DNA of 64,000 bases from Paramecium tetraurelia (Eukaryota): positions 434,001-498,000 of the forward strand of contig CT868241.1 of NCBI GenBank assembly GCA_000165425.1. The letters run 5' to 3'. Numbering within the stretch: position 1 is the first letter of the stretch; the number at the start of each line of letters is the position of its first letter. Made by a program: the position numbers and the translations under genes. Below the pieces are notes generated by a model. It ran no database searches. It had not been told where the DNA came from and saw nothing but the letters and a program-made list of their open reading frames with translations. This document shows, piece after piece, positions 21,734 to 43,447 of this stretch.

Positions 21734-22309
21734 ATGAAGATCTACGTTGATGCATTCAGTGGAGAAGAAATCGTTTCTGACAGTTTCAATATGGAAGAGA
21801 AATTTGAAGGAGTTATTGGCGAAGTGCAATCCCAAGATATTGTTAAAGGTGCTCTCAATGTAGATGTGGGTAATGTTGTGGGCTCTACAATTTATAGGTG
21901 CTGGAGGTCATTTCGGTGGCAAGAACGAAGACGAAGAAGACGGAGGTGTAGATGATCAAGCCTAAAAGGTTAACAACATCATCGATGCCTTTAAATATGC
22001 TGAAACCTAATTCACCAAAGCCGATTACGTTACTTACTTTAAAGCTTATGCCAAGAAGGTCAAGGCTTACTTAGAGGCAAACAAACCAAACAGAGTTGCT
22101 TCATTCTAAAAGGGAGCTGGCGAATTCATTAAATGGGTTTCAGCTAATTTCAATGAACTCCAATTGTAATTTCTGCTAATCTATAGTTTAGCTACTGTCC
22201 TGAATCATATGACATGGAAAATCACATCGTTCTTGGATATTACAAAGAAGGACAAGCTGCCCCAGCCTTCGTTTACATTTTAGACGGATTAAAAGAAGTC
22301 AAGATGTGA
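21734..22309 (+). CDS. TCTP: Translationally controlled tumour protein
   Basis: It reads MKIYVDAFSGEEIVSDSF..NVDVGAG..VNNIIDAFKY..FTKADYVTYFKAYAKKVK..LDGLKEVKM with two introns. Confidence 0.93.
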
Positions 22310-22354: not shown

Positions 22355-23892
22355 TCATTAATTGGGATTATCTTCATTTTATAATAATGGAACCTTTTCC
22401 TCTACTTCATCGCGTTTGCTAGTACTAGGGGTAGAACTTTACACTTCTTTTTTCTCTTCTTCCTCTAAAGGTTTTTCTCTTTATTTAAGAATTTCATCCT
22501 CTCTCACTACATAAAGCCAAGGCAGAGGCAACAAAATAAACACCCCAGTAATCGCTATAAATAACCATAATCTGGAGTAGTCTGTCTAGTCAATCTTCAT
22601 CCAAATCAAAAACAGGGCTCCCAACCAACTTCCCAACATGGAACCTTTTCTCATAACTAGTAAATTATACCAAAATTAATCGTGCTCATTAACATAGCAT
22701 ACATAGTGGCTTCGATATGTTTTGGACACATTCTACAAGCCAACACTAAGACTGGCATGATGTTCAATTCCCCAACAAATTGCAACATCACTTGATCTCC
22801 GATACAAAAGATCTTATCGTTGATTCCCCATTCAACATTCTTTCTAGTCACCAAGATTATTATTGATTAATAACACAAATAATAGAGGAATGTTGTAACT
22901 AAGAATATCTTACGAAATTGTATGTCTCTCAGATAATTGTTATAAATTAACACTCCAGAAATTGAAGCTACAGCATACTGAAAATGTATAATCTATTCAT
23001 TACCATAAATTTCAGTTATCCCAAAAATTTTGGATTGAATCCAAGAACTTCAGTATAAAAGAAAAACATAATTGTGGAACTAGAGGGAGCCATCATAAAT
23101 GCAAAGATTAGCATTACTGGCTTATAAATTAGAGGATTCTTGAAAAATTACCAAAAGTCCTTCAGACATTAGGTAGTGTTGTTTTTTCTATCGTTTTGAT
23201 CCAAAGAGTTTACATCTATCTTTTGTTCTTAATAAAAAAATGAAACAAAAACGAGAATCATTGGAAAAATTGAGGTTATCATAAATACTATTTATTTATT
23301 TTTGAAGTGTACTTTATTAATAAGTGAAGTAATGTAACAGAGCTCCAGACGAGTATGCACTCAACAATGAACCCACAGCTCTTACTCCAAAGAATATTGA
23401 CACATTCCTCGATGCTCCATGTTGAAAATTGTTTTATCGTTATTCTCTCGATGCTTAAGCTGCGACTTCCACCAATATTGCCTCACCTACCACATTAACA
23501 AAACATATTGAGAGTTGAATCAAAAATAACAGCAGCAACACACTAACCAAACTACCATCTTTGTTTTTGGACATCATTATCCAACCCAATGCATCCAATA
23601 TCCCAAATAATATTATATAAGATTTTCTCCTGTAGCCCAGAAAGGGTTTCGAGTCTGTAATGATCCCCCAAAATGGTTTAATCATCCATGGAAGTGTTGT
23701 GTAACTTAAGTATAATCCCATCATGGCTGGAGACAAACCATATTCATCCTTTAGCATGTAATTTACAGCCAAATCTGATAAATGCTGAATTCCCTAATTG
23801 AATGCTGTCACACCTATAATGAAGTATGAAGGATTAAAAGAAGAGTATAATTGATTAAATTGATCAAACAACTTTGTACAAATTATACTCAT
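22355..23892 (-). CDS. Folate/biopterin transporter (BT1/FBT family, MFS)
   Basis: It reads LAVNYMLKD, LPWMIKPFWGIITDSKPFLGYRRKSY and MPVLVLACRMCPKHIEATMYAMLMSTINFG. Confidence 0.9.
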
Positions 23893-23913
23893 ATTAATAA
23901 AGATAAATGAGTA

Positions 23914-25742
23914 TCAAATTATCGTTTTTAATGATTCCCCTCTTATAGATTGCGCCTTGAAACTGTCCAAATACTCTTGGTTTTTGTGATTCAACATTAC
24001 CTTGTCAACTTCGGTCAAAATCTTAGGTAATTTGAGACACTTTATTATTGTTTTAGATGAAATTGAACTATCAGGAATAACATATTTTGGTCTTGCAGCC
24101 GCTGGAAAAATCTTCAATACTCATTCTATTAATTACCCTATTGATTATACTAATCGAGGAACCTTTGCTGGCTTCAATCTGAAAGAATGCCTTCTCCAGA
24201 GACAAGGGTTCTGTATCTTTTAGATTTGAATAAATCACATTAATATTCCTTCGAAAATTGTAATGTGCTTTATTGATATGTCCATGACCTTACAACATCT
24301 CATACCCTGTGGGTTCGACTGGATTTCCAATTCTCTCAAAGGAATTCTTGAGAATTTATTAATTTTGTGATTGCTCAATAAATGGAACTTCCCTAAATTC
24401 TATAGACTGAGGAATTTTCTTGATTTATTTAATGATGTCCAGAGATTATTTTCTTTGAGTAATTTTATTTTGATCGAAATGTTACAGTTTTTAAATTGCT
24501 GCTCCCTTTTGGAAATATTATAAGAATCGTTGTTTATCCAATACAAAGTATTATACCTTCTGACTTATACTGATGGCTCTATACTCCCGTTTAATTCCAG
24601 CTAAGACTTCCTCGTGTCCAAAGATTTGTCCAGGTGTAATAATCGAGGTTCTTACCTTCTCCAATTTTTGCTCATTTCTCGTAAAGAACTTATTGATAAT
24701 GGAATTATTCTACACCGATTAGGTCAAATTTACAAATTTGCATAGTTCCACCTCTCCAGATTTCAATAAGTATATATTACTATAATAGTTTATATGATTG
24801 GATACTTGGCCTCTTCATTTTCCTTATAGATTATTTAAAATAGCTTCCTCTCCTCCTACTTGAAGTGATAGTACAGTTAATTCAGCATTTGATCATTCCA
24901 ATCTGAAAATATAGCAACTTTGCTAAGAAACCCAATATTCACTTTTTATTAAGCCTCATAAAAAGCAGACAATAATCTATTAAACTGATCCCTTGTCACT
25001 GTTGCAAAATGTGTATCCTCAGCTGCCACAATAGTTGCTTATCTTGGCACCTATTTAGTCAAGGCTATTTCCCCAAAACTTTCGCCAGAATTTATCTAGC
25101 CTACCTTCTACAAAGTTGGAAACTGAGTGTCTAAGAATTCCTTATCAGTCATGGTAGCAAAGATGTCATTGAGAGTTACTTGAGTGATGAATGCTTAGGG
25201 CTTATTTTTTTTATTTTTCATCTTCTTGTTCTTCTTTGCATTTTCCATCATTTCTTTGTTTTTTTCATCCTTTAAATCTTATTCTTATTTTTAATCCTCT
25301 TCAGTAGGACCTGAGCCATCCTACAAACCCTTCTTCTAAACCAACACCCAAACACTTCCTTTTAGAATGATGTAAAACTTTTTTCCCAAATCCCCTATAT
25401 TGAAAACGGTTTATCTCCTATGCTGTACTTCGTAACTCAATTATTTGTATAATCCTGAGACCATCTCAGCACCCATTTATTATTCTAACTCCTAGAAGAA
25501 CTTGAATCTGAAGAATGACAATCTGATTTTATCAATGTCCAGTTACGATCTTTGAGAGGATTGCTTCTTTAGCAATGTGACTAGAATCTAAGAGATTCAT
25601 TTTATATGTTTATACTTACATTCAAATCTTCATCATCACCGAATTCAGGGTCTGATTTTTTGAGGACATCTGCAACTACATCTTTGATGGTCATTCTATG
25701 TCCTGATAGATTTCCTCTAACTTTTTCGATTGCATTTTTCAT
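23914..25742 (-). CDS. Cyclic-nucleotide-binding domain protein (two cNMP domains)
   Basis: The first domain reads VFNIGDLGKKFYIILKGSV and GESFGEIAL..PRQATIVA. The second reads IYLLKSGEVEL..GQIFGHEEVL. Confidence 0.85.
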
Positions 25743-25877
25743 TAAAATTATATAAAGATTTTAATATCTATCATCTGGCATTCGATTACCTATATTTATT
25801 ATAGAACACAGAAAGTTTCATTTAAGTCTTTATAACAAACAAAACATACATGATTAAGAATCAAAAAGATTAAGATA

Positions 25878-28800
25878 TCACAATTTGACCCACTTGGCTA
25901 AAATGAATAGCAAGGCATCAATCATTATTGGTTTCTACAAGCAATCATGAAATTGTAGTTTCTTTATAGCGAGTTTGCTCTCTTCATCTTAAAATCCAAT
26001 CAATCCAATTAGTCTTGTATCTTTCTAATATTCTGCCAATACAGCCTTTATTTTAGCACAATCAGAACTGAATTGTTCATTCACAAACTCCACTCCCACG
26101 AACACGATGTGATACCCTTTACAACAGGTCTTAAATTGTGAAAATTGCTTCCTTAATTAATCAACAATATGCAATCTCTGCATTGTGTAAATGTACGGAA
26201 TTTTGAGATTGCTCAGTTGATGAGATATAGCATATAAATCAAAGTCATTCTATTCGCAAATTAGAACCTTTGGACACTAAAATTGAATTACTATAATATA
26301 CTTGACATTTGTAAACGAATTACTACTACTTGATTCTTTCCATCTTTTCAAAACAATCCAATAACTCATTTGGCCCTAGATTTACTGAGGATATCCTCAT
26401 CGAAGAATACACCGATGAACGTCCTCCAAAAGTTAATAGGGAATCTCTTTATTTAGACGAAAGCTATTATGAAACTTAAGGACTCAACCTTGATTAGATA
26501 ATACTAACCGAAATTTTTCTTGCTTTTGGTTCTTTAACACGAATGAAAGTATCAAGAAATTAAGAAGGTTTTTGCTGCTTTTCTATTTTCTCTATTTTAT
26601 CGTTTATTTGAAGACTTGATTTGCTAGATTGTATATCACCATCACATTCTCCTTTGTTCATCTCATCCTTAGAGTCTGATGATGAGGAACTCTATTACGA
26701 GTCGTCCTATTCTGAGATTTAAGAAACAGAGTAAGATTTGTCAGGCTATTGATTGTCAGACGCTTCAGATTGTCCAAACTAAGGCAACTGAGGCTCAATC
26801 TTGCCGGATATAGTCTCTTCCTGAGATTCTCTTTTCATTTTCTTCAGTTTCTCCTACACCTAAATTCTGCATATTTCTGTTAACCTTTATGACTAATGCC
26901 TCTTGAATTGACTGCTCTAACCAAACACCTAATGGAATTGAGACTTGTTTGCAACCAACGCAGATTACCTTTTTTGTGTTAGTTGCTTATTGAAATTGGG
27001 ATTCTCATTTTTTATCAATAAAATAAAGTAAAACTAAGTGCCATCGCCAGTCTTTATTGAATTAAACTCAAAAGGCATGATAGCCACAGCCATAGATATG
27101 TAGAATGCCGTAATTATGGAAAAACAGTATTATTTAGATGTTGCAACAATATCTATCACCTATTTACTAACTAAAGTCTGTTGTTTTAGATGCTTCAGAG
27201 TTTGTTCGACACTTTCGAGAATCCCTTCGTTTACACTTTAAGCCATGACTTTGATGATAATTTCAATGTGATCAGTCAATAGAGGTGATTTTTAACAAGA
27301 AATCTCTATGCTCCCATTTATTGTAACCTAGATAGACTTGACTATTAAAATAACACAAATATTAATACTTAACAAATTCAATACAATTTGTCTAACTCTA
27401 TTGGGATCAGTTCTGAGAAACATTGGAACATTTTATTTGATATGTACCTGTATATTTAGTCCTCTAAATAGTGCTTATGCCTTTATAATGTTTAGACAAT
27501 CTGAAATGAATTCTCTGGTGTGTATGTCCATTAAATTTCTGTCTAATTTATTCTTTTTATGCATAGTGACATAATCCTAAAAGTCATTTGCTGTGCTAAT
27601 TAACAGTTTGCACCCTGCCAATGCTGGATCAATGTATTTGGTTTGGAGATCCTAATTAACTTCTTTCTATTTTAGATTATTATAAATGAAATACTTAGAC
27701 CAATTCTAACATGGACAAAGTACAATTCAACGGTTCTTTCATTTTCTGGGAAATGGTTTGAATAACGTCATCACTATTTTTTAGGTATAATTAAAGTTGG
27801 ATAATGAATGGTTCTTCGGTTAGATCGTTTATGTACAAAATGATTTGAGGTTTATTTGAGATGATAACTGGATTCAAAATAACTTAAGTGTAAAGTTTAT
27901 CTAAAATGCTTAAATTGGAAAATTACCTTTTTTTATATAAATTTTTAAAGAAAAATCTAAAGCAAAATTAGTTAAATTAAACTTTATATGCGAAAAAGCA
28001 AGGAGATGCTCAATCAAGGTTTACACTTGCATCTTCCTACAAAAGAATTGTATCTCTTTCTTTTCCTCAGGCTAAACGTTGTCAAATTGGATGTTCTAAG
28101 TTCAAATGCATTAATATATTAGTACTCAAGGGTTTAAGTGAATTTGATGAAATTACTGATGTCTTTACTTCTGTGGAAGCTCGGGAGTATGGTACAGGAT
28201 TCTTCTGAGAGCAACCCAAAATCATACAATTCCAGTTGAGTCAACTCTGGATTTAGTTGATCATTGATTAAGACGATGTGAGACATGAATGAATTTATTA
28301 TTCTAATTGGTTGCTAAGCATTTTCAAATATGTAGATTCCACATTGGAAATTGATCAACAATAATTCATACTGTTCCTCTAGATGTTTCAAATTATTCAG
28401 ATTTTCGAACTCGTCATTAGCAATATCTGCAATGTTATTTTTTTTATTTTATGGTTCAGTCATTTCCCTCTGGGTGTTTATTTGAGCAGCCCTCTATGTG
28501 AGCAACGGGCTCAAATTCCTAGTCAAAAGAGCATCATTTGAATTTCGAGTTTAATATAAATGATAAAGCAACAAAGATTAAATCACTACATGTCCAAAGA
28601 TTATCCTAGTAGATCCCATAACTTCGATGGTATTAGTGAATGCTGGGAATCTAGACAGTATTATTCAAATTGTACCTGAATAGAGAGTAGAAGAGTGAAA
28701 ACAGTATGACCAAAGTTCTGCACAGCTGAGACTCGATTGCGATCAAAAACAATATCATGATTCCATAAATTTCAAACGCCTAACTCCTTTGATCGTACTC

Positions 28801-29155
28801 ACTGGTGTAGATACGGTCATAATCAGTTTCAAACCATAATATTATTAGACTGAAATATTTGAGCATTGTGATTGTATTAATTAGAAGGGTTGTTTCTCTT
28901 TTCAATTTGCTCATTGCAATATGAAATGCTATCATCAATAAGACTTGGATCTAAAAGGATGAGTTATTCCATTACCAATATGCGATACACAAAAATCAAT
29001 TTTTGGCCCTCTATCTAGTAATTCAAAGCCTGGACTATGGTTATGAGTATGTCGAAACATTAATACAAAGACACGATTGTCATTGTGGATTTCCACAAAA
29101 TATAATTCTAATATGTCTCTGGGTTCAACTTAAAGTAATTTGATAGCATGTGCAT
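25878..29155 (-). CDS. Membrane hybrid histidine-kinase-like protein A (HisKA-HATPase-REC), catalytically degenerate
   Basis: N-terminal hydrophobic segments, then TISQKMKEPLNCTLSMLE (H-box), LLISTANDFQDY, TDPNRVRQIVLNLL, and a receiver PKVLICEQNDFDLYA..CCKGYHIVFVGVEF..KPIMIDALLFILAKWVKL. Confidence 0.85.
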
Positions 29156-29188
29156 TATTACTATATAAATTATTTATTAATTTAACAA

Positions 29189-32100
29189 TCACAATTTCAC
29201 CCACTTTGCTAATATAAACAATAAAGCATCTATCATCAATGGTTTCGATAGAAAATCATGAAATGGCAGTTTCTTAATAGCATTCCTGTTGTCGTCATCC
29301 TGAAACCCTATTAATCCTATAATCCGTGCTTCCTTCTTAAATTGAGAGTTTATATTTTTAATTAAGTTGCACTGTTCCCCTAATTCCTCATCCACGAACT
29401 CCACACTAATAAATATCAACTAGTATCCCTTGCAACAAGACTTCTCAACCTCATAGGCTGTTTTCAACTTCTCATGTATTTAGGTTCTCTACATGGTGTA
29501 ATCATAATTCATCCCAATGTTGCCAAGTTAATGAGACACAGCATACAAGTCGAAATCATTTTATTCGCAAATCAATATCCTTGGACACTTTAAAATATAA
29601 CACTATATGTCTTACTTAACACTTTTAAGTATACTTCTGTTGTTTAATTCTTTCCATCTTCTCAAAACAATCAATTAAGTCATTTGGTTGCATAATACTA
29701 GCCGAATATCTCATTGACGAGAACATACTTGATCTTCCCCCAAAGGTTAAGATTGAGTCTCTTCTGCTGGGCGTTATGTTATTATTGTAAGTATAGGCTA
29801 TCGATTATTGCATAACCACCAAAGGAGATTCATTTTCATTCAACTTTCCAGTCTCATTTGTCTATTTGTAAAGGAATTAATCTAATTGAACTCCTACATC
29901 TAAACTGTTATGGGAACTTTCATTTTCTCCTTTGGATTCCTTCGATTCCTGTTCTGAAACTATAGAAATATCAGATTTTGAATGAGAAATTATCTATTTG
30001 ATCTTTTTACTTTAATCCTATGACTTTATGGTCTTAAAAGTAGGCAAAAAGTCTACATCAATGTCCCCTTGGGATGTTCTAGGTACTATGAAACGAGATT
30101 GGTTTTATTATCCAAAAGATGTGGATAATTTAATTGCTGAATCTTTCCTTTGGGATTAAGTGGCTAAAACTTAAGATTGTGATTGTAATTTTTATTATGA
30201 CTATTGTGACTACTACTACTTATTTTTCTACTTTTCTAATTATCCTTGGATTGTTATGCTTGCTTTATCAAATAGACTTTATCGGGATGATTGATGTCTT
30301 CTGAATCCTTGATCAATTGAAAAGGACTACTTAAAGCTTTGCTGTTAAAAGCTGAGAGCAGATTGTCTTTTGAAATTTAATTGTTATGAGAAATTCGGAT
30401 TTTTGTTTTAAATTTAAATTTTGAAACAAAACTCTTCATGATCTAAATTTTTCTCGTAATGATACTCAAAAGGGATTGTTGAAATACTGAGTGATAAACA
30501 AAATGCTATCAATATAGATTGACTATATTTTCGACCTGCATTTGCCAAATCAATCATTGTAGAGGCCAACAAATTCTGGGATTTAAAAAACCTCACAGTT
30601 TTATCAATTGTTTTTAACACCGATTAATTAATTTCTGATGCATTCACTTTAATCAAGAGTTCAATGTGATCCTACATCAAAGTGGATTTGCTGGCTGATA
30701 CAGTGATAGTTCCATTTATTGTTGCCTAAATCGAACTTACCAATAAGTTTAACAAGATCTATCTTAATCTATTGGGATCTGTCCTAAAAAAAGCAGGTAC
30801 ATTGTGTCGGACATTCACTTAGATCTGCAATCCTCTGAATAAAGCCTAAGATTTTATTATGTTTATTGAATCAGTAATGAATTCCCTAATTTATGATTAT
30901 TTCTAATGGGTACCTTATGTGAACATCCATTTGGCATAGTTCCAGCTTCCCTTTCTTTCGTATCGTAACGTAGTCAAGAATATCATTGGCTGTACTGATC
31001 AATAATTTACAACCTGCAAGTGCTGGGTTCAAAAACTTTTCTTGGATTTCAAATGGAACTGAGTGCTAAGTTGAAGTAGAATAAAATACAATCGTAATTT
31101 CCAACATTGAAATTGTGCAATTCAAAGGTTGTTTAATCTTCTATGATATATCTGAGACTAATTAATCACTATTTTGATTATATTAATTCAATTATGTCAT
31201 GAAGGGTTCATCTGTAAGATCTGATACAAATAGTATTAATTAAGGTCTGTGTCTTTGTAATATGGGGGAGAGTACAACACTTGTATATAGATTATCTATA
31301 GTCATATGATTATGTTTATATACCTTTTTTGAGGTATATTTTAAGTGAGAAATCTATCAAATTTTAACATTGATTGAATTTGAAATGCTGGAAGGGCAGT
31401 AGATGTTCAATCAGGGTTTTAATTTTCATGGATTTATGAAAAAATTGGACCTCTTTTAATCCAATGTTTCCATTCTCATAATTTATGTTCTAAGCACAAT
31501 AATAATAAGAAAAATTCATACTCAAGTGTTTGCATAAATTTGATAAAGTTTCCGATGTCCTTGCTTCTGTGGAATTTAGGCAACACTGTTAGATTGTCCT
31601 CAAAGGAAATCCCAAAGTCAAACATTTCATAATTCAAAAACTCATCACTTAATTGATCATCCTTCAACACCAGATGGGACATGTAAGGATTGATAGATTT
31701 AACTGCACTCTGCAAGTTGTCCAGAATGAATATGCCTATTTGTATATTATTTAAGACATTCTCGTAAAATTAGTCTAGGTTCTACCTCTCAGTGTCCAAT
31801 CTGTTTTCTTCTGATACTGCAACTTCGTTTTCTTTAAGTTACTGCTTCAATCTCTGGGTGACATCATAATTTTATTGATTTATGTAGGTAGAAAGTCGCA
31901 ATTATTAATTCAGTTGAGAATGCCTATTACTTTGCATAGGAACATAGTTTTTTGACTACTGACCCAACATTACAAGTTGATTGTTTAATTTCTACTTCTG
32001 TTGCGGCAGTTATAACAAAAATATTTGAATAGCCACATGGATTAATACTATCCTAATTGAAGAAAGAATATCAATTTTATTTTAGAATAGCTAGATTCTA

Positions 32101-32604
32101 TTCTGTTATGATATATTTATACCGAAAAAGAGAGTAGAATAACGAAAATAATAGAGATATTGTTTAACATATTTAAGATTCCTGCAATATCACCAAAGCC
32201 AACAACAGGATGTATATTTCAGCTGTATAACTAGTATAAGGTTTCTATATTTCATTAAATAAATAATAGTCAGTTTCAGTCCAGCATATAAAAAGTGAAA
32301 TAAAATATATAAATGTAGCAACATTTAGAAACCCATTCCTTATTTTTCTTAAACACTTAAAAATATGCCAAAATACTAACAGTAATCCAGCTTGAACCTA
32401 CAATTTTAATATATGTCATACAATTATTCTAGCTATCATCATTATTCTTGTTCCATCCACACTTTAAGTACTTACATCTACGATATTGATTATCATATCA
32501 AAAAGTTGGTAAATTGAAATAATATTTATTACTTTGGTGTGCTGATAAATGTTCGTATAAGGCTATGAGTAGATGTAAAAATAACCCTTAAGATTGTCTA
32601 TCAT
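29189..32604 (-). CDS. Membrane hybrid histidine-kinase-like protein B, tandem paralog, catalytically degenerate
   Basis: It reads DISQKIKQPLNCTISMLE, LLISTANDILDY and TDPNRLRQILLNLLVSS, with a receiver PRILICEQNDFDLYA..CCKGYQLIFISVEF..SKPLMIDALLFILAKWVKL. Confidence 0.85.
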
Positions 32605-34237: not shown

Positions 34238-35295
34238 TCAGTCATTTGCTTTACTCAATTCTTAGAAGGTTAGCGCAATTTTCTCTGAAATCTCATATTC
34301 AAATCCTTCAATGTTATTGTGATTCATATTAGAGAATAATTCCTATCGTGCATTTTGATTTTAATTATATAATCTAAAATTAAGATAAAGTCTTTACTTT
34401 CTTTAAAGGAAAATTGAATGATGAGAAGGTATGAGAGTATCATCAACACCATGTATAAATAGAGCAGGACATCGAACTTTTGCAATGTTCTCTTCATTGT
34501 TAAATCTTTCATCCATGATAGCACTGACAAAGAATCCAACACCAAAAACCATTCCTCTTACAAGTTATTTGATAGACCTGTAAGCAGAAATAGTAACTAA
34601 ACCTCTGCAATTTTTTTAAGAAGCAACATGGATAGCTGGTCCTGTTCCTATTGATCTATTTTTATTTAAAAATGGATACCTCCCAAAAATGTATATTTGA
34701 CTATCATCTAACTTATTTTCTTCTTTGATTTACTCGTATGCCAGAATGGAATCTTCTAAAATTATCTTGGCATTTGTTTCAGTATATTAATAAATTCCAT
34801 ATTTAGGATATTCTATTAAGAATGCATGAAACTTCAAAGACTTCATAAGCTTCCTTACAAGATGTGCTGCATCATCACTACATAGATAATCGGATCACTT
34901 ACATGTTCTCCCCATTTCCATGAAAATAGATGACATAGTATTTCGTATTTGGATACAGTTCGTTTCTAAGGAAGGCGTAAGGGACAATTCTATTAAATTC
35001 AATATTATTGCACCTCTAATTTTGATTGCCTTCTCCTGCTATGAAACTAATATGCATAAAATATACCATTTCTTCTAACAACACTAAAGTATTTAACTTC
35101 TTAAGCGTTTAAGCTCTGGTATTCTTTGCATGATCTTGCTGGAAAAATCAGTCTATCCAGTATTCTTTCTATATAGCGTTTTATTCCTTTAAACGCTGAA
35201 CGGCATCTCATTTGTGTGGTTAAGCAAATTATCAAAGTAATGATAGACATAATAAATGTTATTATTAAGCAGAGTTTTAGAGTAAAGTTTTCCAT
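34238..35295 (-). CDS. Alpha/beta hydrolase (ABHD13/ABHD17-like) with N-terminal TM anchor
   Basis: It reads LIFPA, YFHGNG, EYPKYGIY, FG|RSIGTGPA (nucleophile Ser), LFIHGVDD and MNHN. Confidence 0.85.
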
Positions 35296-35348
35296 TAATT
35301 CTATTATCTTTTTATCCAGGTTTATATTAAAAAATATATAATAAAAAT

Positions 35349-36376
35349 TCATGAAAACTTCTTCTATTTTAAATCAGTGAAACCTTCTAATATTGGGCAT
35401 GCAATATCTTCATCGATGTCATATTCATTGTGTGTCATTCTTGGCCTCAAATTAAGATTTGATTTTTATTAAATTGAAACAGGAAGACTTAAGTTATAAA
35501 AATGATCATACTTTTAATAGATTTCCTAAGAATGATGTGATAGAATCAGAGGATCATCCAATCCATGAATCAATACTATAGGACATTTAATATCTTACGA
35601 CCTTTCTAAATTTCTGAAGAAATTAGGCAAGCAACACAATAGGTTGAGAATGCATCCACAACCATTGCAAAAATCACTTATGATATGTCTAATTGATTTA
35701 TAAGCTGACATTGTTATTAATCCTCTTATATTTCTTTGACTTGCCAAATAAAATGAAGGTCCCGTGCCGATTGATCTTAATACTAATAAATAGTACCTTC
35801 CAAAGATATAGATTTATTCATCTTGCAATTTGAACTCCTTTTTAATTTCATCATAATAAACTAATGCATCTTGTTCAATTAGGGTTGAAGTTGGTTTAAC
35901 ATTCCTATAAATACCATAACCTGGATATTCTATAACAAATATATTTGCATTTATCATTTTCATTAAATACTCCATAAATTAAGCGGCTGCCCACCTAAGT
36001 CTATCAAATATAACATGTACATGTCTTCAGCATTGCCATGAAAATATATTATATATAAATTCGTTTCTGAATACTTATTTTTAATATAGACATATGGAAG
36101 GCTTCTGACTTTTTCAAGATTTAATGAATATTCAGTTGGTTTTCCATTAACTACGTTTATTTTAGTTTTACCCAAATTACCATCTTAATTGTAAAGGTTT
36201 GCAAAATAAAGTTTGTCCTCAAAATATTTTTCTTCATACATAGGAGTTGGAGCTGGAAATATAATATTGTTAATCTTTCCAAAACAATGTAAGATGATCA
36301 AAACAAGTAAGTACAGTCCAATAAATATACTGAACACAACAATAAGTGCAATATGAGAAGAGTCTTGATCACTCAT
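35349..36376 (-). CDS. Alpha/beta hydrolase (ABHD13/ABHD17-like), tandem paralog
   Basis: It reads IIFPAP, YFHGNAED, IEYPGYGIY, FG|RSIGTGPS, LIHGLDD and MTHNE. Confidence 0.88.
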
Positions 36377-36607
36377 TTTGTTAGATAAATAAATATATTA
36401 ATAAATTATTAGTAACTTACAAATTCAGGGGAAATGGTTAACATAGTTCATCTATTAAATTTATTGATTTATGGCTGTTTTGGTTATTTGAGAATTTATT
36501 AACATATTGTAACTGAATGCATGTTAAAAATTATATTAATAAAATTGCATAATCAAGACCATTATGTGAGTAATTATTAAACTTTTTAAACTAACTTAAT
36601 AAAGAAG

Positions 36608-41257: not shown

Positions 41258-43447
41258 TCACATTGGAGTACACATTTTCTCATTGAGTTCTCTCCTTTTA
41301 TCAAAGTTGCTGATTATTTGACTTTATTATGGTAATTTGTTTTCTACTTTGCTCTTTTAATTTTAATTTTAGCCTTTATTATCATTATCATTATTTTTTC
41401 TCTTTTCTTATTTTTTCTCTCTATTATCTTTATTATCTCTATTATCTCTATTATCTTTATTATCCCTGTTATCTCTATTATCTTTATTATCCCTGTTATC
41501 TCTATTATCTCTTTTATCTTTTTTTTCTTTATTTTCTCTATTATCCCTCTTTTCTTTATTATTTCTATTATCTTTATTGTCCCTGTTATCTCTATTATCC
41601 CTATTGTCCCTGTTATCTCTATGTTCTCTGTTTTCTCTATGTTCTTTGTTGTCTCTATTGTCTCTATGATCTCTATTATCTCGATTGTCTCTATTATCCC
41701 TATTGTCTCTATGATCCCTATTATCTCTATTATCCCTATTGTCTCTATTGTCTCTATTATCCCTATTGTCCCTGTTATCTCTATTATCCCTATTGTCTTT
41801 ATTATCTCTATTGTCCCTGTTACCTCTATTATCTCTATTGTCCCTATTATCTCTATGTTCTCTGTTTTCTCTATGTTCTTTGTTGTCTCTATTGTCTCTA
41901 TGATCTCTATTATCTCGATTGTCTCTATTATCCCTATTGTCTCTATGATCCCTATTATCTCTATTATCTCTATTATCTCTATTATCTCTATTATCTCTAT
42001 AATCCCTATTATCTCTGTTATCTCTATTATCTCTTCTATCTCTATCATCCCTTCTATCCTTGTTATAGCTCATATTATCTATGTTACTTTATTACTTATT
42101 AATCATACTCCTTTCATCCCTAATAAAATTTTAATTCAAATTTGGATAATTAAATTAAGAAAATTCATTTTAATTTTGGAAACTTCTCTAGGTACCGTCA
42201 TTTTAATGATGGTACACATTTGATTGATGAAAAAATTATGATTAAGAATCTGTAAACTATTCTTCCATCCTTTTATTTCTTAGTTCAGTATTTCTAACAT
42301 ACCTGTTATTATTGTTATGATTATTACCAGTATTCCCAAAATCTTATTAAAATTATTGTTAATGATGTTCACGTATTTAGCTTTGTTATTGGGAAGGAGG
42401 ATAAGGCTAGAATTTCTAATTATTAAAATTAGGATTTTAATTCTGCTTTGGAATAGATATTTCTTCAAAGCCATCCTCATCGGGGATTTTAGAATGTTTA
42501 AAATTATGAGCATAATCAAAGTATTCTTATGGTCTTTGGTCAAATCTCTAATATTTATTTTAAGACTACACTTCCTACTCTTATCTATAATTATAGGTGA
42601 AATTTTTGTTGGATTACTCCATTTAATCAAACGTTCTGTTGAATTAATTCGTTTAATTGAAATTTTTGTTGTATTACTCCATTTAATCAAAGGTTCTGTT
42701 GAATTAATTAGTTTAATCGAAATTTTTGTTGAATTAATCTTAATCTTATTAAAAAGATGCATATATATCCTTATGCTTGATAATTGATTCTTGTAACGAG
42801 GATTTAAAATCTACTTAGCTTCTATAATATCTTTCGCCTTCTTTATTTTCAACTTAATCTTCTTATGCTTATTCCTGATCTTCATCTTCTGAGCTTTCTT
42901 CTTCTTACTAGATGTCGTTTGTTGATGTAAGATCATATAGCTCTCTAATCATTGGATCATGATGTTTAAGAGATTCAGATCTCTCATCAAATAAAGATTT
43001 TTAATATCCTGGCTTTTACATTTCTTCCTAAGTTGGATTAAAGGTAAGTTTGATTATTATGGACGAGATTTTTACACTTATATTAACATCAACTAATCCC
43101 TCCTCCAAAGGTTCGTAATGGGTAAATTTTTCAATGTTGTCGATTAGAGAAATCTAGAATGTATTATGAATATATCCATACTTCATGAAGTTTAGGAAAT
43201 TTTTCTTTCAAAATTTTGGCCATCATTATAGCATTAGCAGCTGTTTTCTCATAAGCAACTAAATGGATAGAAGAAAATTCTAATGTAAATTTGATTTATT
43301 ACTTTCATCTTTTAAAAGTCTTATTGCTTTATCAATTAATTTATGGATTCCCTAATTCACAGAGATTACATTTTATGCATAGGGAGGTTGGAATGTGCTC
43401 TTAAGGTATTTATTTTTTGTCGAATTGGTGTTATGATATTTTTACAT
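41258..43447 (-). CDS. Alba (Rpp25/Mdp2-like) domain protein with long low-complexity (DNR)n tail
   Basis: After two introns the N-terminus reads IHLVAYEKTAANAIMMAKILKEKFPKLHEI..YEPLEEGLVDV..SSIIIKLT..KPGYQ, which is the eukaryotic Alba/Rpp25 pattern. It ends MCTPM-TGA at 41258. Confidence 0.8.
41415..42058 (-). repeat. 9-nt minisatellite (GATAATAGR) encoding (Asp-Asn-Arg)n, about 70 units, with an internal higher-order duplication
   Basis: ORF 41408-42073 reads RDNRDNRD.... The block DHRDNRDNKEHRENREHR recurs 234 nt apart (41621 and 41855). Confidence 0.95.
42598..42740 (-). repeat. 60-nt tandem repeat (about 2.3 copies, 30-nt subunits) encoding Q/N/F-rich decapeptides
   Basis: Rows 42601, 42661 and 42721 align almost base for base. 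The translation is QFNKNFDQTNQFNRTFDQMEQYNKNFNQTNQFNRTFDQME. Confidence 0.9.

Follow-up and report, generated by a model that had tools for sequence, protein, structure and literature searches.

Two adjacent Paramecium genes from a conserved family of predicted pseudo-histidine kinases with a probable GT-TG intron

Analysis of a 64,000-nucleotide (nt) stretch of Paramecium tetraurelia DNA (assembly GCA_000165425.1, contig CT868241.1, forward-strand positions 434,001 to 498,000; hereafter the window, whose numbering is used throughout) indicated, from alignments and predicted folds, that two neighbouring minus-strand genes, A and B, belong to a conserved, old, Paramecium-only family of catalytically dead hybrid sensor kinases. 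The family is a real and conserved one that appears not to have been described before: pseudo-histidine kinases that are dead at both ends and that probably carry a conserved, tiny GT-TG intron. The window is A+T-rich, uses genetic code 6 and has introns of 20-30 nt. Gene A (29189..32604, 1077 residues) is followed head to tail by gene B (25878..29155, 1032 residues, start at 29155) after 33 nt; the proteins are 45% identical and, as the initial annotation had reported, share the C-terminal sequence MIDALLFILAKWVKL. The frames are not simply long, as that annotation had it: each gene is interrupted by seven introns of 23-28 nt, the third of them lacking a GT-AG form in frame, and both spliced models are free of internal stops. 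The exons of gene A are 32604-32422, 32397-32123, 32097-31522, 31496-31324, 31295-31090, 31065-30914, 30885-29616 and 29587-29189, and those of gene B are 29155-28976, 28950-28676, 28650-28126, 28102-27927, 27900-27695, 27666-27369, 27341-26302 and 26276-25878. Four canonical introns of these models (introns 1 and 7 of A, 6 and 7 of B) were exactly missing in contigs of sequencing run X3, which is guessed to be RNA; among the runs listed as matching, none is recorded as RNA. In the public model of the C-terminal part of gene A, the 24-nt, stop-free intron 31066-31089 is retained and adds eight residues; alignment of the paralogues favours its removal over retention.

The finding is carried by the loss of the catalytic residues, which was read from an alignment of the family with 31 kinase cores of the same genome (G000) and six bacterial cores. 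The His column of the H-box is occupied by Gln in both genes, encoded by TAG in A (31141-31143; Gln in code 6) and by CAG in B (27746-27748). The N-box Asn is replaced by Ser in A (30737) and Lys in B (27339), the G1 Asp by Ala in both (30641 and 27243), and neither gene has a GxGL (G2) box. At the receiver, VDD has become CEQ in both proteins, so that a single Glu of the acid pair is left; Ser in A (AGT, 29405-29407) and Gly in B (GGA, 26094-26096) stand in the phospho-Asp column, Ile stands in the beta-4 Ser/Thr column, and the Lys is retained. The initial annotation had named the H-box codons, the N-box, DxGxG/GxGLGL and receiver losses correctly, and no His, Asn or Asp stands at the catalytic columns. 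Its proposal of a conserved pseudo-kinase/pseudo-receiver subfamily was likewise supported; the catalytic columns are lost in all eight paralogues and, where covered, in 23/23 family proteins of the protein database. Across the family, the H-box column reads Gln (8/8 paralogues) or Ser (P. bursaria), the N-box column Ser, Lys, Thr or Ile, the G1 column an invariant Ala with no Gly at G2, the phospho-Asp column Ser, Gly or Ala and the beta-4 column Ile or Met; K1054-P1055 is invariant. The D/ExxT/N phosphatase motif that follows the His in HisKA proteins (PMC12963549) is also lost, and reads KIKQ, KMKE, KIKE or RIRQ.

The controls behaved differently. The His, N-box Asn, DxG and GxGL were all present in 31/31 same-genome cores, a set composed of the 30 best of at least 126 HisKA matches plus locus L017 and thus biased to canonical kinases. 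The phospho-Asp was present in 18/18 control receivers, those of the 31 loci that could be read without an intron break, chosen by their DD pattern. In a profile search, 163 of 164 non-family domains (the best 150 hits plus one reference) had no lost residue in the covered columns, and the exception was a truncated match; more distant dead relatives beyond Paramecium may exist, as the search covered the top 150 among 163,269 hits. Set against an active hybrid histidine kinase of the HisKA class, A and B lack every catalytic feature compared and share the order of folds and the receiver Lys. Without the His, a nucleotide pocket or an acceptor Asp, phosphorelay can be excluded on established grounds, and in general terms A and B very probably act non-catalytically. 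Residual or new catalysis, as a phosphatase or as a Ser/Thr kinase of the kind found in subfamily II ethylene receptors, is very improbable: degenerate ethylene-receptor kinases have Ser/Thr activity in vitro (PMC4730734) and the CA fold is retained here, but the N, G1 and G2 boxes are all lost and the D/ExxT/N motif reads KxxQ/E.

Both genes encode six transmembrane helices (6TM) followed by PAS, DHp (dimerisation and histidine phosphotransfer), CA (catalytic and ATP-binding), linker and receiver regions. The membrane part and the DHp-CA-receiver layout had been recognised in the initial annotation; the PAS domain between them and the non-canonical intron 3 had been missed. The DHp, GHKL-type CA and receiver folds were found in order, with Pfam scores below cut-off, profile matches to solved kinases down to E 1e-19, and matches to DHp-CA and receiver domains in Foldseek and VIA, among them a RetS-GacS DHp co-complex. 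DivL, which reportedly has no receiver, was also matched by fold (Z 16.8, root-mean-square deviation (rmsd) 7.2, 221 aligned). In gene A the membrane domain (approximately 32010..32604) has six helices predicted from the AlphaFold model of paralogue P0001 (residues 19-46, 51-77, 82-111, 115-132, 136-154 and 160-182), and hydropathy gave four segments above threshold. The PAS domain (A 31221..31778; B 27826-28376), split by intron 3, was assigned from a PAS_8 match (E 0.012, below cut-off), the model, in which its strands come from both sides of the intron 3 junction, and structural matches, including one to phytochrome A 271-683 across that junction (Z 17.0, rmsd 8.4, 318 aligned). The pseudo-DHp with its His-to-Gln change (A 30957..31210; B about 27558-27815) is followed by the pseudo-CA domain (A 30407..30957; B 27009-27558), which was placed by alignment and by a fold match to the CA domain of ETR1 (Z 17.4, rmsd 2.5, 145 aligned). 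Ahead of the pseudo-receivers (A 29189..29587, phospho-Asp to Ser; B 25878..26276, phospho-Asp to Gly; Lys kept in both) lies a family-specific motif (A 29616..29750; B 26302-26433) that is predicted as two helices in both models and whose matches, up to E 1, were confined to the eight paralogues of the genome. In a full-length paralogue model (mean predicted local distance difference test score (pLDDT) 69, predicted template modelling score (pTM) 0.53), the six membrane helices are followed by PAS, DHp and CA, then by a disordered linker of ~190 residues and the receiver. The receiver exon of the paralogues on contigs C269 and C424 (loci L015 and L016) carries a 33-residue Gln/Asn-rich insertion inside the pseudo-receiver.

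Three genome searches returned the same eight members: A and B, their ohnologous pair A' and B' on contig C391, and singletons on C313, C569, C269 and C424. The initial annotation had presented the tandem pair as a system. This part of its claim is weak, because four of the eight paralogues stand alone and the pair recurs only in the ohnologous C391 region. In the protein database, 23 family proteins were found, all from Paramecium (five other species, P. bursaria included), and were separated by a gap of 60 orders of magnitude from ordinary kinases; statements on other species rest on annotated proteins. Nine family cores formed one side of a long branch with support 100/100, with no sister clade resolved, and none of 413 pattern matches in metagenome contigs was confirmed as a relative. 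Selection on the family is purifying: the ratio of non-synonymous to synonymous rates (dN/dS) between ohnologues was 0.060 for A/A', 0.052 for B/B' and 0.081 for C269/C424, values that are rough because dS is 1.0-1.4, near saturation. By part, dN/dS was lowest in PAS (0.02-0.13), DHp, CA, pre-receiver and receiver (0.01-0.09 in the last four; 0.01-0.03 in the pre-receiver motif), and was 0.06-0.20 in the membrane part. Transcripts are present: low-depth coverage, by 151 and 210 reads, was obtained from two stranded poly(A) runs and was confined to the orientation that usually means minus-strand RNA. A and B are working genes, pseudo-kinases rather than pseudogenes. The view that they are pseudogenes or assembly errors draws on the breaks in frame at intron 3 under GT-AG rules and on a further 1-nt frameshift in the C313 copy; for A and B it is largely refuted and has almost no probability left, given dN/dS of 0.05-0.08, DNA contigs of run X15 that agree with both intron 3 sites, and gene models of other species that break at the same place. 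In the genome assembly the C313 copy (L013, about 3380) has one extra base that shifts the frame near the end of CA, which may reflect either a recent loss or an error of sequencing.

The third intron requires a separate explanation. In each of the eight paralogues it opens with GTA following the same codon position, and use of the first AG as acceptor breaks the frame, with a stop within 6-50 codons; retention leads to a stop within 8-60 codons. An in-frame GT-AG intron of 18-40 nt was found in none of A, B and C569. Among the in-frame ends at 19-35 nt, TG is the only one common to the eight; it is always TTG, at 23-25 nt, which is a normal intron size here, and an AG lies 2 or 7 nt past it. 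In A and B this gives a putative GT-TG intron of 25 nt (31497..31521) and 23 nt (28103..28125), respectively, each with the first AG 7 nt downstream and out of frame. TTG made up 10 of 681 interior trinucleotides in 39 canonical introns of family genes. In-frame conservation of codons extends from intron 3 to the first Met downstream, and the codons right after TG differ synonymously in 5/6 changes between A and A' and in 9/12 between B and B'. A protein-guided spliced aligner that penalised TG nevertheless chose it for A, B and C569 (3/8); the remaining five were given canonical alternatives, and two further TG introns, both spurious, were placed around the frameshift of C313. With the AG out of frame in 8/8 and no in-frame GT-AG choice in A, B and C569, TG would be the sole productive site, and from frame and conservation it is likely that the full-length protein needs intron 3 spliced there. 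The intron 3 interior of B and B' (L012) is 16/17 identical, against 8/19 to 19/19 for their other introns; this is above most, not all, of them, and other pairs have no clear excess.

A single X3 contig over intron 3 of gene A lacks 23 nt (31499-31521): the same GT (31521) was used, and the gap ends at UAU, two bases before UUG, out of frame. What this contig documents is donor use, in gene A only, together with an acceptor other than AG; the productive form is not what it shows. In yeast lacking Prp18, UUG and UAU both rank among the non-AG acceptors used most (PMC10711555), and somatic DNA heterogeneity can mimic such gaps (PMC5663052); X15 DNA contigs match the reference at both intron 3 sites with no difference. 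Raw reads of 58 nt gave no joints for any intron, at a depth of 0.25-1.6 around the intron 3 sites. Intron 3 was also considered as an internal eliminated sequence (IES), as TA-to-TA removal would on paper restore the frame of gene A; this was rejected because the segment is present in the genome assembly and in the X15 DNA contigs, and, in C569, C269 and C424, lacks in-frame TA boundaries. A loose X15 end at 31498, taken as a candidate IES boundary, was an 18-nt chance match to contig C675. A genome-wide count of GT-TG-like patterns (1851 matches against 1259 in the control) was uninformative.

Public gene models are disturbed at the same place. Of 23, eight begin after the intron 3 site and 15 bridge it in discordant ways. 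A P. octaurelia model ends in the out-of-frame tail predicted by AG splicing, and a P. sonneborni model that reads through has Tyr-Cys-Ala there, which forces TG at this place in that species. In P. tetraurelia, one public protein is identical to the first 344 residues of the gene A model, and gene A is recorded as two genes of 359 and 718 residues. These records, and the fact that in-frame spliced RNA was seen in neither X3 contigs nor raw reads, would suit truly split genes (an N-terminal membrane protein and a soluble C-terminal one) or ribosomal frameshifting after AG splicing. Both are improbable: the PAS fold requires the two halves, the codons that separate intron 3 from the next Met show in-frame conservation, one contig spans the site, and after AG splicing five paralogues would need a shift of -1 and three a shift of +1, their AG lying 7 nt and 2 nt past TG, respectively. 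A conserved TG acceptor would explain the database splits, since Paramecium pipelines count GT/AG junctions only (PMC5663052, PMC5485702) and it would go unseen. If the TG acceptor is true, more such genes are probably hidden.

Taken as a whole, the best explanation, that of a dead Paramecium sensor-kinase family with a phosphate-free relay and a full-length protein dependent on TG splicing, is held with moderate confidence. Several points weigh against it. TG-spliced RNA was not seen, as the only contig across the A site ends at UAU and none crosses the B site, and run X3 is no more than a guess as RNA. The paralogues are related, so that eight of eight does not amount to eight independent trials. 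Five of them have an in-frame GT-AG alternative, obtained with small changes in A', C269 and C424 and only by intron read-through and dropped exon residues in B' and C313. After TG, the C269/C424 comparison has four synonymous and five non-synonymous codon changes, a weaker signal. To these are added the near-saturated dS, the structure models, which are of orthologues from another species with pTM of 0.38 and 0.53, and the fact that some of the DHp conservation is common to active ciliate kinases.

Regarding mechanism, selection retains the sensor part, the DHp surface, the family-only pre-receiver motif and receiver helices 1 and 5, and invariant residues concentrate on the DHp just past the H-box, on receiver helix 1 and in the beta5-helix 5 region. 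The conserved DHp and receiver surfaces are presumably the mutual docking faces of kinase and receiver in solved structures, which favours a conformational relay through the protein's own pseudo-receiver. By analogy with DivL and PsmA, A and B would most likely signal by shape change and docking. The specific route can be put forward only tentatively. The protein would be a membrane-anchored dimer in which a shift of the DHp bundle is driven by the 6TM and PAS parts; the bundle would bind or release the protein's own pseudo-receiver, and a partner would thereby gain access to helix 5 of the receiver and to the pre-receiver helices. A weak intron 3 acceptor may throttle or regulate the output through decay of mis-spliced messages: AG or UAU splicing, or retention, leads to premature stops, so that such an acceptor would set the amount of receptor. 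The further suggestion of a splicing-fidelity switch on a phosphate-free sensor, a receptor family without His-Asp chemistry in transmitter and receiver whose amount is gated by a TG-only tiny intron, with AG use leading to decay, is more doubtful still.

The initial annotation had offered scaffold, heterodimer or allosteric roles, any of which A and B may have. The main rival to the conformational relay, considered unlikely, is that of a decoy or inhibitor whose dead DHp heterodimerises with active Paramecium kinases or binds their phosphorylated receivers, as in RetS/GacS or DivL. It is favoured by the strong conservation of the DHp, the RetS-GacS co-complex among the fold matches, the large number of kinases in the genome (at least 126 HisKA matches; 201 transmembrane histidine kinases for P. 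tetraurelia according to PMC10463195) and the precedent of DivL, whose dead core senses DivK~P (PMC4211667). However, it leaves unexplained the pre-receiver motif and helix 5 of the receiver, which belong to the most conserved parts, and the family lies on a long branch near no active clade. Still less probable is a structural scaffold at a membrane or cortical site, its domains serving as binding surfaces without signal input. The hybrid pseudokinase PsmA is a component of a polarity complex (PMC12963549) and the long disordered linker would suit such a role, but the membrane and PAS sensor parts are under purifying selection and RNA depth is low. The conformational relay through the pseudo-receiver is favoured over both.

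Around the pair, a long open frame at 41261-43207 (minus) runs over a low-complexity repeat of short units and is open in several frames. Downstream of B, a minus-strand gene (24071-25817) presumably encodes a cyclic-nucleotide-binding protein, and its start was also found after the C313 paralogue. Upstream of A, a minus-strand cluster of about three similar genes (34238-36424) is taken to be alpha/beta-hydrolase-like. The genes at 21738-22290 (plus) and 22355-23913 (minus) are assumed, from their look, to be TCTP-like and folate/biopterin-transporter-like, respectively.

A literature search, with supplements, newer curated gene models and paywalled articles (the 2009 Paramecium kinome paper is one) lying outside it, found no ciliate pseudo-histidine kinases or Paramecium GT-TG introns. 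The available parts of PMC6324907, PMC10463195, PMC12963549, PMC4730734, PMC10711555, PMC5485702, PMC5663052, PMC12862383, PMC13685798, PMC2374985 and PMC4211667 contain no dead ciliate kinases or ciliate TG acceptors. Ciliates have some 200 hybrid histidine kinases, and no Hpt (histidine-containing phosphotransfer) candidate was matched in the genome, a negative weakened by introns and the genetic code. A dead subfamily older than the P. bursaria split offers a small, knock-down-ready handle on the non-catalytic output of this receptor class.

The closest known proteins in layout are the ciliate six-helix hybrid histidine kinases (PMC6324907, PMC10463195), which, like A and B, combine membrane helices, sometimes a PAS domain, and DHp-CA-receiver, and have Cys pairs around the receiver in common with them. 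The A/B family differs from these in having lost all phosphorelay and nucleotide-binding residues, in forming a long-branch clade and in its own pre-receiver motif. At the splicing level, TG 3' splice sites of U2 introns (PMC2374985) resemble intron 3 in lying near an AG and being conserved over long times. In human, TG is always the alternative site (PMC2374985); as the sole productive acceptor of a 23-25 nt intron, that of the A/B family would depart from this rule. Among bacterial proteins, PsmA of Streptomyces (PMC12963549) is likewise a hybrid with a PAS domain, a lost His, a CA domain without ATP residues, a lost phosphatase motif and a disordered region before the receiver. The PsmA receiver still has a dispensable Asp (PMC12963549), which is replaced in A and B; moreover, A and B are eukaryotic, with six membrane helices and eight paralogues. 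DivL of Caulobacter (PMC4211667) is similarly a PAS-DHp-CA pseudo-kinase that acts without kinase activity; it has Tyr in place of His, where A and B have Gln, and its partner is known. Degenerate kinase cores are also found in eukaryotic receptors, namely the subfamily II ethylene receptors and the kinase-related domains of phytochromes, in line with the fold matches to ETR1 CA and phytochrome A, and ethylene signalling does not proceed mainly via His phosphorylation (PMC4730734). In contrast to subfamily II ethylene receptors, A and B have a PAS-like domain instead of GAF and six helices instead of 3-4, and an origin independent of ethylene receptors and phytochromes is suggested. By analogy, the A/B family would work like DivL, PsmA and the degenerate ethylene receptors and yet be a member of none of these groups.

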